A stretch of 29,363 bases of DNA from a virus (IMGVR_UViG_2713896897_000016:1-29363), one strand, 5' to 3'; shown: positions 24,313 to 26,629, counted from the stretch's first letter. Numbers and translations: made by a program. Notes: generated from the sequence alone by a model not told the origin.

Positions 24313-26205
24313 ATGTCAGAATTAAAAGTCTATATCGGTGCATATATCCCCGACGAAAAATCAATTGAAGAAAACGGCGCTCGCAAAGTTGCCTACGCAT
24401 TTGAAGCGCGTGGTGAAAAACACGCGCGAGCAAAACTTTCATTTGCATTCATTGAGGAATATCCGGGAGCGCAGGACGCAGCATTTAAAAGTTTTCTTTG
24501 CGAGGACGCACCAGGAATGCCCCGCCCCGCTCTTAATGTATGGGATGAGGATTTTCTTTATGAAAATGACTGGTCCGAGGAATTAGGACACCCGGTTTCA
24601 CGTATTGAAGAACCGAAGTCAGTGGATTTTAATAAACTCTCCAGCGAGCAAAAAATCGCCGTATTAGTCAAATACTCCACCGCCGATATAACAACCGATA
24701 TGCTGCCGGACGCGCTGGAATTAACACAGGATGAGGCAGGAACATTCCCCGGTCATATTGTCGAGGCAATTAGTAAAACTCCGGCAATTACTGCTATGTA
24801 CCCCGAGCGTATTATTGAGGCCATTCAGTACGTTGTCAAAAAATGCGCAACTACCAGCAAGTGGCCCGACATCAAAGCGCAGCTCGCGAGCTGGCAGAGC
24901 GGTTTAAATCCTGAGCGCACGGAACCGGAATCAACTGAAAAATTACGCACCCCGTCAGGCGCTACCGCTGGCGGTGGTAACGCCACGGATCGCAATCCTG
25001 ATGTTGAGCATGATTTTAACTCTCTCGCGCTCGAAATCGCGCTGGGTATTCATGCACGGGCGATGGATTTTGATATTTACAATCTCCGCTCCGCGCACAT
25101 TAACCGCGCTCGGGAAATTATTAAGTATAAAGAAAAGCCGTTCCCCGCCCTGTTTGACGCGTTCCGTAATACTCCGGGTGTACTCGATTATTCCCGAGCC
25201 ATGATCATCTACGCGGTCAAAACGGCACCGGAAAATATTGAGAGCACGCCGGGTAAATTATCACACTATCTGAACACCACGCTTACGGAGTCAGACCACG
25301 AACACCCGGATCCGCAAATGATCGCTATTGCGTGTGGTACGCACACCGAAGAATCAAGCCAGGGCGAGCCAGCGCCGCAGGAAGACACACCAGAACCAGA
25401 GCGTCAGGGGCCGTTCTACTACCGCACCCCTCAGGGCGAGGTTGGGCGCGCGAATAAGCTGGCAAAACTGACAGCGGTTATTGAGCAGGGTTGCGAGGAG
25501 ATTACACGCGAGCAGTACACGGAACTCAAAAATGCGCCGTCATATGATGACGTTAGTAAACAGCTCGCAGCACAACGCGGTGAATACGTAGAGGGAATCA
25601 GCGACCCGAATGATCCGAAATGGGTTAAGACCGAAGTTCAACCAGAGGTAAAAAACCACGGTAACGGCGTGTTTTCAATTGAGGGGTTAATGGGCGAGCA
25701 GGAAAAACCAGCGGCCCCGGTCGCCTCAGATGAGGGAGTAAAAGCGAAAGAAGCCCATGTTGTAGCCACCCCGGCCCCGGTTGATTTTCAGGGCGTTGCT
25801 GCAAGTCTCGAAAAAGACATGGCAAACAAAAACGACGAGGCCAGGGGCAATCTCGCTATCTGGCGTAGCGTAATGCGGACCGATCCCCGATTCACAAAAC
25901 AGATGGTGGGAATGGGATTTGAGGGAACCAGCATCAACCCCGAATATATGATTATGCGCGCTACGGAGATATTTGGGCCTATCGGTAGTCGTTGGGGTTT
26001 TGAAATATTAGAGGACCGAATGATTCCGGGCGCTCCTTTTTCTGAGGCTGTTTATGAGGATAAAAAATTCATTTGCAACCGCATGTTGCGTGACGGTGAC
26101 GGCACCTTGCTGCATGAACAAAACCACAGCATTAAAATCCGCCTGTGGTATCAGGTCGGTGCTGATGAGGGATCGGTATATGTTCAAAACGAAACACGGA
26201 ATTAA
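24313..26205 (+). CDS. large uncharacterised protein whose C-terminal ~130 aa form the start of a Rad52/Erf/Sak-like single-strand annealing domain (interrupted)
   Basis: Continuous 630-aa frame; C-terminal MVGMGFEGTSINPEYMIMRATEIFGPIGSRWGFEI resembles Rad52-family RVGFGNQ...INLANEIFGYNGWSHSI; N-terminal ~500 aa not recognised; frame ends at 26205 inside the expected domain. Confidence 0.5.
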   Translation: MSELKVYIGAYIPDEKSIEENGARKVAYAFEARGEKHARAKLSFAFIEEYPGAQDAAFKSFLCEDAPGMPRPALNVWDEDFLYENDWSEELGHPVSRIEEPKSVDFNKLSSEQKIAVLVKYSTADITTDMLPDALELTQDEAGTFPGHIVEAISKTPAITAMYPERIIEAIQYVVKKCATTSKWPDIKAQLASWQSGLNPERTEPESTEKLRTPSGATAGGGNATDRNPDVEHDFNSLALEIALGIHARAMDFDIYNLRSAHINRAREIIKYKEKPFPALFDAFRNTPGVLDYSRAMIIYAVKTAPENIESTPGKLSHYLNTTLTESDHEHPDPQMIAIACGTHTEESSQGEPAPQEDTPEPERQGPFYYRTPQGEVGRANKLAKLTAVIEQGCEEITREQYTELKNAPSYDDVSKQLAAQRGEYVEGISDPNDPKWVKTEVQPEVKNHGNGVFSIEGLMGEQEKPAAPVASDEGVKAKEAHVVATPAPVDFQGVAASLEKDMANKNDEARGNLAIWRSVMRTDPRFTKQMVGMGFEGTSINPEYMIMRATEIFGPIGSRWGFEILEDRMIPGAPFSEAVYEDKKFICNRMLRDGDGTLLHEQNHSIKIRLWYQVGADEGSVYVQNETRN

Positions 26206-26629
26206 ATGTGATGGCGAGGCGCAAAAGAAATCATTAACCGATGCGCTTAAAAAGGCCTTATCCCTGCTTGGATTCTCTGCTGATGTGTGGCTCGGACTCT
26301 ATGATCTGCCAGAATACCTAGCGGAAAACAACACCGAATTTGCAATTAAAAATGCCAGCGAAAAAGCCGAGGATATTACCCGCCTCCGTGCTGAACTCGA
26401 CGAGAAAATGACGAGCGTGGCAAATACAATTGAAACGGCAGTTACCCCCAACGAAGCAAAAAAAGTTTTTGATACGCTGGCGCGAGAAATAGAAATACAC
26501 CGGAAAGCAGCCGAATCCAAAGGTGATGCCGAACACGCTAAATATCTCGCAAGTCGTTTGCGCCGCCTGAATACAATAAAAGACGCGCGCATTAAATCAC
26601 TAAATGAGCAGCAGGAGCAAACAGCATGA
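26180..26629 (+). CDS. C-terminal continuation of the Rad52/Erf-like annealase domain in a different frame
   Basis: KKSLTDALKKALSLLGFSADVWLG resembles the Rad52/Erf helix motif (KEAVTDGLKRALRSFG); frames overlap at 26170..26205 (caaaacgaaacacgg). Confidence 0.45.
   Translation: MFKTKHGIKCDGEAQKKSLTDALKKALSLLGFSADVWLGLYDLPEYLAENNTEFAIKNASEKAEDITRLRAELDEKMTSVANTIETAVTPNEAKKVFDTLAREIEIHRKAAESKGDAEHAKYLASRLRRLNTIKDARIKSLNEQQEQTA

Follow-up and report, generated by a model that had tools for sequence, protein, structure and literature searches.

A putative Rad52-type annealase with a RecE/YdfE-related N-terminal region, split by a 23-bp deletion in an Escherichia albertii prophage

The stretch of viral DNA analysed here (IMGVR_UViG_2713896897_000016, 29,363 nucleotides, called the window in the following) belongs to a lambdoid prophage of Escherichia albertii (draft assembly GCA_001514595.1, contig BBVG01000029.1) and carries a disrupted gene at positions 24313 to 26629. 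As judged from gene comparison and structure modelling, this gene very probably represents a widespread annealase of the Rad52 type with an N-terminal extension, in a copy that was inactivated not long ago. What the analysis shows is the deletion, the architecture of the gene, its conserved residues, a predicted fold and a conserved gene pair; that the intact form anneals DNA strands and that this copy has lost the function is our inference.

The 5' open reading frame (ORF) of the disrupted gene was identified by an ORF scan at 24313..26205 (+ strand, as are all features of this gene and of its direct neighbours) and encodes 630 amino acids (aa), being 100% identical to WP_059216015.1 from E. 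albertii. It is composed of 621 native residues, of which 604 agree with P0001, an intact protein from E. albertii, and nine that are out of frame including the premature TAA stop at 26203-26205. The orphaned 3' remainder (26180..26629) lies in the next frame and encodes 149 aa from the methionine at ATG 26180, corresponding to residues 631-779 of the intact protein, while the full ORF in this frame overlaps the 5' ORF and covers 26054..26629. The remainder is identical to P0001 in 149 of 150 residues and to WP_059216016.1 (149 aa) at 100%, and it contains the end of the last β-strand, the conserved helix E-x-x-KKSLTDAxKKxLSxLGF and a helical tail. RefSeq annotates the two pieces as separate hypothetical proteins. 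A megablast search of complete E. coli genomes identified two strains carrying the region at 94.5% identity, and in both of them one coding sequence of 2340 nt and 779 aa spans both ORFs of the window. As the intact alleles form a single 779-aa coding sequence, the ~500 residues upstream of the annealase domain do belong to the same gene. Global alignment with the intact alleles of E. coli STEC384 and E. albertii L008 and L009, the latter two with 95 mismatches along the gene, showed a sole indel, a stretch of 23 bp absent from the window, which is also the only gap across 5.9 kb of the surrounding operon in comparison to L009. The intact alleles read GTATATG-CCTACGGCGCAACGCC-GTATATG and the lost 23 bp correspond to one repeat plus the 16-bp spacer, so that in the alignment with STEC384, L008 and L009 the lone remaining copy of the 7-bp direct repeat at 26176-26182 marks the deletion junction. 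The split by a frameshift that an earlier note on this DNA had described is thus explained by the 23-bp deletion leading to the stop at 26203, with the frames meeting at this junction and not near 26190 as given there. A 23-bp deletion between 7-bp repeats is the classic footprint of slipped mispairing. It takes out the residues AYGATPY (624-630), which are part of the last long β-strand of the Rad52 core and of which G626 and T628 are invariant in 68 homologues.

Since the codons past the break differ almost only synonymously from those of the intact alleles (synonymous to non-synonymous 5:1 against L009 and 10:1 in the other intact comparison), the deletion is recent. The cluster formed at 90% identity spans about 80 contigs, which come from E. 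coli, E. albertii and E. fergusonii, and nearly all of its members have 779 aa; split products aside, the only other length listed is one member of 704 aa, and the split form is confined to one genome. Both split products are also recorded in Logan, a separate re-assembly of public sequencing runs, where the contig differs slightly in size (40456 vs 40448). The pseudogenisation seen here is ordinary, routine prophage decay.

The intact E. albertii protein P0001 was modelled with AlphaFold2 using the 68-sequence alignment (mean predicted local distance difference test, pLDDT, 78.5). The model consists of a confident α/β plus helical domain (residues 1-200), a helical domain (235-341), a small α/β domain (365-421), a disordered linker (438-489), a region of helices, a long antiparallel sheet and a further helix (~490-670) and a tail of three long helices (674-778). 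The Rad52-superfamily core fold is present in it, with a β-hairpin plus three-stranded β-sheet and a bridging helix, and the best structural matches of this domain in the fold search were Rad52, Mgm101 and Sak. Projected onto the window, the YdfE_N-type α/β and helical domain (residues 1-205) is encoded at 24313..24927, the segment related to the middle of RecE (212-439) at 24946..25629, the poorly conserved linker predicted to be disordered (440-489; pLDDT <50 over 438-489 of the intact model) at 25630..25779 and the first two thirds of the Rad52-fold core (490-621, two helices, β1-β2, a helix and most of the β-sheet) at 25780..26175.

At the sequence level the likeness is faint, as the full-length profile found no match among PDB sequences even at E ≤ 10, the domain profile found RAD52 chains as its five best matches but at E ~0.5, and hhalign to RAD52 gave E 0.0046 at low probability. 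Because such sequence-only matches are insignificant, the assignment rests on the predicted structure and on homologues passing the Rad52 model. In the alignments by hhalign and HMMER the motif KKSLTDAxKK corresponds to RKEAVTDGLKR of RAD52 (K144...T148-D149...K152-R153), with K654/K655 aligned with K152/R153, which are DNA-binding residues of the inner groove in RAD52. K646, K647, T650, D651 and K655 are invariant in the 68 sequences, while R156 of RAD52 is not kept (an invariant S658 is found instead) and R55 is without an exactly aligned basic residue. The peptide flagged in the earlier note, GTSIN.EYMIMRATEIFGP.G..WG, aligns to residues 58-84 of RAD52. With the predicted core fold, the RAD52-aligned residues and the homologues that pass the Rad52 model, the C-terminal part can be identified as the Rad52-type annealase domain proposed before, and the intact protein is most likely a single-strand annealing protein (SSAP) of the Rad52 type. 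At the sequence level a likeness to Erf, also suggested before, was not found, the ERF Pfam model giving no match at E ≤ 0.1. The fold-search matches included no solved Erf structure. The 630-aa product of the window lacks conserved core residues, the KKSLTDAxKK helix and the tail, which bears out the suspicion that the annealase is inactivated.

An exhaustive profile search for the domain resulted in 4424 representative clusters at E ≤ 0.001, 3008 of them at E ≤ 1e-10. Among the best 150 of the 4424 representatives 26 are of the long form (545-814 aa), in which the domain is C-terminal. Nearly all others are 208-364 aa long and have it at or close to the N-terminus, with three hits being truncated fragments or an incomplete entry. 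Pseudomonas prophages and phages have stand-alone homologues (~243 aa) that are 40-44% identical to the domain, some of them being named Rad52/22 or RAD52-like by their sources, and one that is 44% identical (P0154) has a precomputed PF04098 match. By sequence comparison the large N-terminally extended fusion is conserved across Enterobacterales, making the unusually large fusion of 779 aa the native state of the gene, and the N-terminal module is an addition typical of enterobacterial and some other lineages. A megablast search against the phage collection gave no close DNA relatives, and the related protein of Pectobacterium phage ZF40, an inducible and viable phage, was found by a protein-level search.

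In every locus examined the gene with the Rad52 core is immediately followed by a gene of the Sipho_Gp157 family, with a 4-bp overlap wherever coordinates were read. In the window this gene is located at 26626..27123 (PF05565, E 6.5e-37; phrog_253) and its start overlaps the annealase stop in ATGA. The loci examined were those of E. coli STEC384, E. albertii L008 and L009, Salmonella L010 and L011, Pectobacterium phage ZF40, Stenotrophomonas BUCT708 and Pseudomonas PseuP_222, L012 and L013, and the adjacency is listed for the window (26626-27123) plus L001, L004, L005, L006 and L008-L013. As the two genes are adjacent in all of them, the annealase and Gp157 form the conserved unit. The adjacency across all genera examined also points to Gp157 as an obligate partner; PHROGs gives it the putative label 'Mu Gam-like end protection'.

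Several points weigh against the interpretation as an inactivated Rad52-type annealase. The intact protein does not pass the curated Rad52 model (PF04098 Rad52_Rad22, 15.3 bits vs a cutoff of 20.3; the 3' ORF of the window reaches 16.4 bits), the fold evidence is a predicted structure, and the searchable literature yielded no biochemical data on any member of the family. The deletion comes from one draft genome, an extra base in a homopolymer of the minor head gene could point to imperfect sequence quality instead of prophage decay, and the 149-aa fragment, having a GAGG 9 nt upstream of its ATG, might conceivably still be translated. A sequencing or assembly artefact would mean that the strain has an intact gene and that its assembly alone lacks the 23 bp, as might be expected from a source that is a draft (BBVG01000029.1), from a split form found in one genome only and from a second frameshift of the window in a C6/C5 homopolymer, a typical error site. 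Nevertheless we regard it as unlikely, as a clean 23-bp loss between 7-bp direct repeats is the signature of replication slippage and not of base-calling or k-mer errors, and no other indel is found in the 5.9 kb around the deletion. An artefact of the original assembler is also less likely because the Logan re-assembly, with its contig of other size (40456 vs 40448), carries both products. The assembly error listed as an option in the earlier note thus loses most of its weight through the 23-bp loss between the repeats and the Logan record. That the split is functional, either by programmed ribosomal frameshifting or by reassembly of the 630-aa and 149-aa polypeptides, is highly improbable, even if the downstream ORF starts with ATG 26180 with GAGG ahead and both ORFs are separate proteins in RefSeq. 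The about 100 homologues listed in the family search (92-100% query coverage) and the members of the 90% cluster are all continuous ORFs with no shift at the site, neither the frameshift site nor the two-frame layout is conserved in homologues, and the shift is unique to this genome. Furthermore, the break lies inside the β-sheet of the Rad52 core, and a +1 shift would still leave the protein without AYGATPY of the core β-strand. Programmed frameshifting was rejected on the basis of these continuous ORFs, and a separate upstream gene was rejected likewise on these homologues; a normal-sized annealase standing alone is found only in the distant (~40%) Pseudomonas relatives and not in close homologues.

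The names given to the family by databases suggest a different function, as PGAP and UniRef call it exodeoxyribonuclease VIII and PHROGs labels the matching families 'exonuclease'. It is barely credible that these names are correct, meaning that the protein is a RecE-type nuclease with an incidental likeness to Rad52. Residues 212-439 are truly homologous to RecE, but the homology is limited to the non-catalytic middle of RecE, whose 5'-3' exonuclease domain was taken as the C-terminal residues 564/606-866. The intact protein gave no match to PF12684/PDDEXK, with RecE itself being found at E 4.1e-28. A phmmer search with RecE 600-866 matched 0 of the 26 long family representatives and none of P0001, P0112 and the proteins of ZF40 and BUCT708, and the DEDD domain of phage Tritos gave no match in the same set. 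The RecE equivalog model NF007259 of NCBIfam is matched at model positions 248-495 only, with 187.6 bits vs a cutoff of 1269, and no nuclease fold was among the fold-search matches. As the match is to the RecE middle without the nuclease domain, the label seems to reflect only the shared non-catalytic segment. Since exonuclease names sit on a nuclease-less family, name-based surveys of phage recombinases or nucleases would misclassify its members.

The upstream region, which the earlier note could not recognise, turned out to contain YdfE_N and YdfE_C domains together with the RecE-middle segment. BLASTP aligns residues 212-439 with 238-480 of Rac RecE at 44% identity (E 2e-52). The NF007259 match and a precomputed PF27432 (YdfE_C) call fall in the same region, which in RecE belongs to the N-terminal part, a part without known function that basic recombination can do without (PMC11611040). 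Precomputed Pfam annotation places YdfE_N (PF27430) and YdfE_C (PF27432) on the window's own 630-aa product, and both are found, again as precomputed calls, on essentially all full-length homologues. The same ~440 residues occur in many E. coli proteins ending in a DEDD Rv2179c-like 3'-5' exonuclease domain (36-37% identity, 99% coverage), and the Salmonella relatives P0105 and P0112 combine the first domain of RecE itself (PF06630) with the middle segment and the Rad52 core. The YdfE_N-type domain is present in 23 of the 26 long family representatives by sequence match, and one of the 23 (P0376) matches the RecE-type first domain too. P0368 and P0105 match the RecE-type first domain only, and the last one (P0377) matches the N-terminal region of the protein of Stenotrophomonas phage BUCT708, which itself matches the YdfE_N-type domain. 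There is a fair possibility that the RecE/YdfE N-terminal region is an autonomous, portable module, which lambdoid phages would join interchangeably to a 5'-3' PD-(D/E)XK exonuclease (Rac RecE), a DEDD 3'-5' exonuclease (Tritos/YdfE type) or a Rad52-type annealase (the family described here). Its presence on three kinds of end-processing domains would imply a function of its own, for example in targeting DNA ends, the replisome or host factors.

In comparison to the Rad52/Sak class, including human RAD52's N-terminal domain, yeast Mgm101 and the Sak proteins of lactococcal phage ul36 and staphylococcal phage 80alpha, the core is not N-terminal but located at ~490-670 of 779 residues, the β-sheet has an extra hairpin, and a helical tail of ~100 residues follows the domain. 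SSAP annealing domains have been described as N-terminal, within the first ~180 residues (Al-Fatlawi et al. 2024, PMC11783212). Here the annealing domain lies outside this range, and the N-terminal placement is a typical property and not a strict criterion. The stand-alone Pseudomonas proteins (PseuP_222 'RAD52-like annealing protein' and AH02 'DNA binding protein') have the core and the tail in common with the protein described here (~40% identity over ~84% of the domain), and those of PseuP_222 and L012/L013 are likewise followed by a Sipho_Gp157 gene with a 4-bp overlap, but they are without the N-terminal extension. Rac RecE resembles the protein in genomic position, as both are encoded between kilR and xis-int in the early-left operon, and the relative in STEC384 adjoins ttcA just as Rac does. 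Besides the 44% identical middle segment they share a long N-terminal portion that is non-catalytic and has no known function (PMC11611040). They differ in that our protein is without the PD-(D/E)XK nuclease domain, has YdfE_N instead of PF06630 as first domain and is followed by Gp157, whereas the downstream partner in Rac is recT. The YdfE-type '3'-5' exonuclease' of phage Tritos (TRITO_27, 823 aa) shares YdfE_N and YdfE_C (36-37% over residues 5-439) and the position before xis-int, but its C-terminal domain is DEDD Rv2179c-like (PF16473, E 2.2e-67) instead of a Rad52 core and no Gp157 gene follows. The YdfE domains of Pfam are named after YdfE of the E. coli K-12 Qin prophage. Fusions of YdfE_N/YdfE_C and DEDD are present in many E. 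coli prophages (P0253-P0335) 3' of dicF, dicB and ydfD, and in Tritos (L007, 3495-5966). Because of the synteny with dicF, dicB and ydfD, YdfE of K-12 Qin is probably a truncated remnant of such a YdfE-DEDD gene. Nuclease-less proteins called 'RecE-2', with unknown roles and no assigned function, have been reported (Zheng et al. 2025, Genome Res, PMC12315714); this description suits the annealase family, which may be the same, and whose C-terminal domain is here recognised as Rad52-type. A fusion of the RecE N-terminal part with Rad52 was not found described in the searchable literature and is absent from Lopes 2010, De Paepe 2014, Al-Fatlawi 2024, Zheng 2025 and a 2023 review. In databases the proteins as such are plentiful.

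The early-left operon of the prophage shows the order cI-like repressor, small ORFs, KilR, Gam-like gene, annealase gene, Sipho_Gp157, a putative activator, xis and int. The gene directly 5' of the annealase in the same operon encodes a lambda Gam-like inhibitor of RecBCD (24007..24303; PF06064 Gam, E 6.1e-6, 26.8 bits vs a cutoff of 25; phrog_259), and this recombination module has no exonuclease gene alongside the annealase. PADLOC gave no anti-phage defence matches for the intact protein, Gp157, Gam and three neighbouring ORFs. In our model the intact protein would be made from this operon, with the RecBCD inhibitor upstream and the translationally coupled Gp157 downstream. It would bind resected single-stranded DNA and anneal complementary strands at the ends of the phage genome or at breaks, serving genome circularisation, recombination-dependent replication and exchange between phages. 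Gam would shield the ends from RecBCD and, with no exonuclease gene in the module, host nucleases would have to take care of resection. Gp157 could act as stoichiometric partner and the N-terminal module might serve in docking or regulation, as in RecE-like enzymes generally. Slippage between the two GTATATG repeats took out 23 bp in this strain, and the 630-aa product keeps the N-terminal module and two thirds of the core. As it is without the last strand, the KKSLTDAxKK helix and the tail, annealing should be lost, and since the stop lies 420 nt upstream of the Gp157 start, the translational coupling to the Gp157 gene is probably lost as well.

The rightward arm of the prophage carries genes for Cro, a YdaT/CII-like protein, O, P, NinB/Orf, an HNH endonuclease, NinG/Rap, Q, lysis proteins, ParB-like proteins, terminase, portal and head proteins. 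NinB/Orf (15818..16174), the HNH endonuclease (15159..15743) and NinG/Rap (14351..14986) are located on the - strand (window 15159-16174), so the nin region still provides accessory recombination functions in spite of the broken annealase. A pair of neighbouring genes (8596-10720, - strand, phrog_620 and phrog_5475), ParB-like or ParB-nuclease-like, is found between the lysis genes and the small terminase subunit. The minor head protein gene (Mu F/SPP1 gp7-like, phrog_324; 3421-4513, - strand) is split into the ORFs 3767..4513 and 3421..3909 by an indel at ~3911, an extra C (CCCCCC vs CCCCC) in comparison to the intact 291-aa gene of STEC384. This points either to more decay of the prophage or to a sequencing error in the homopolymer. 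In the portal/minor-head region 33 bp (window ~4492-4524) are 100% identical to a 'CRISPR' feature of E. coli 2017-02-2CC (NZ_AP027764.1, 1118268-1118300), probably a spacer acquired against this type of phage.

In summary, proteins from several genera of Enterobacterales that are named 'exodeoxyribonuclease VIII' or 'exonuclease' but are without a nuclease domain are most likely Rad52-type annealases, and with the annealing core placed behind ~490 residues this family is an exception to the N-terminal rule for SSAP domains. The intact architecture is of modest interest, and the RecE module, or its middle segment, lends itself to simple swaps and deletions, as it occurs on three different catalytic domains. 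The N-terminal part of RecE has a bearing on recombineering, because linear-linear recombination is improved by the full-length protein. If the module is indeed portable, the N-terminal ~600 residues of RecE would become experimentally tractable via natural domain swaps, and the pair of Rad52 core and Gp157 would represent a nuclease-free two-component recombinase.

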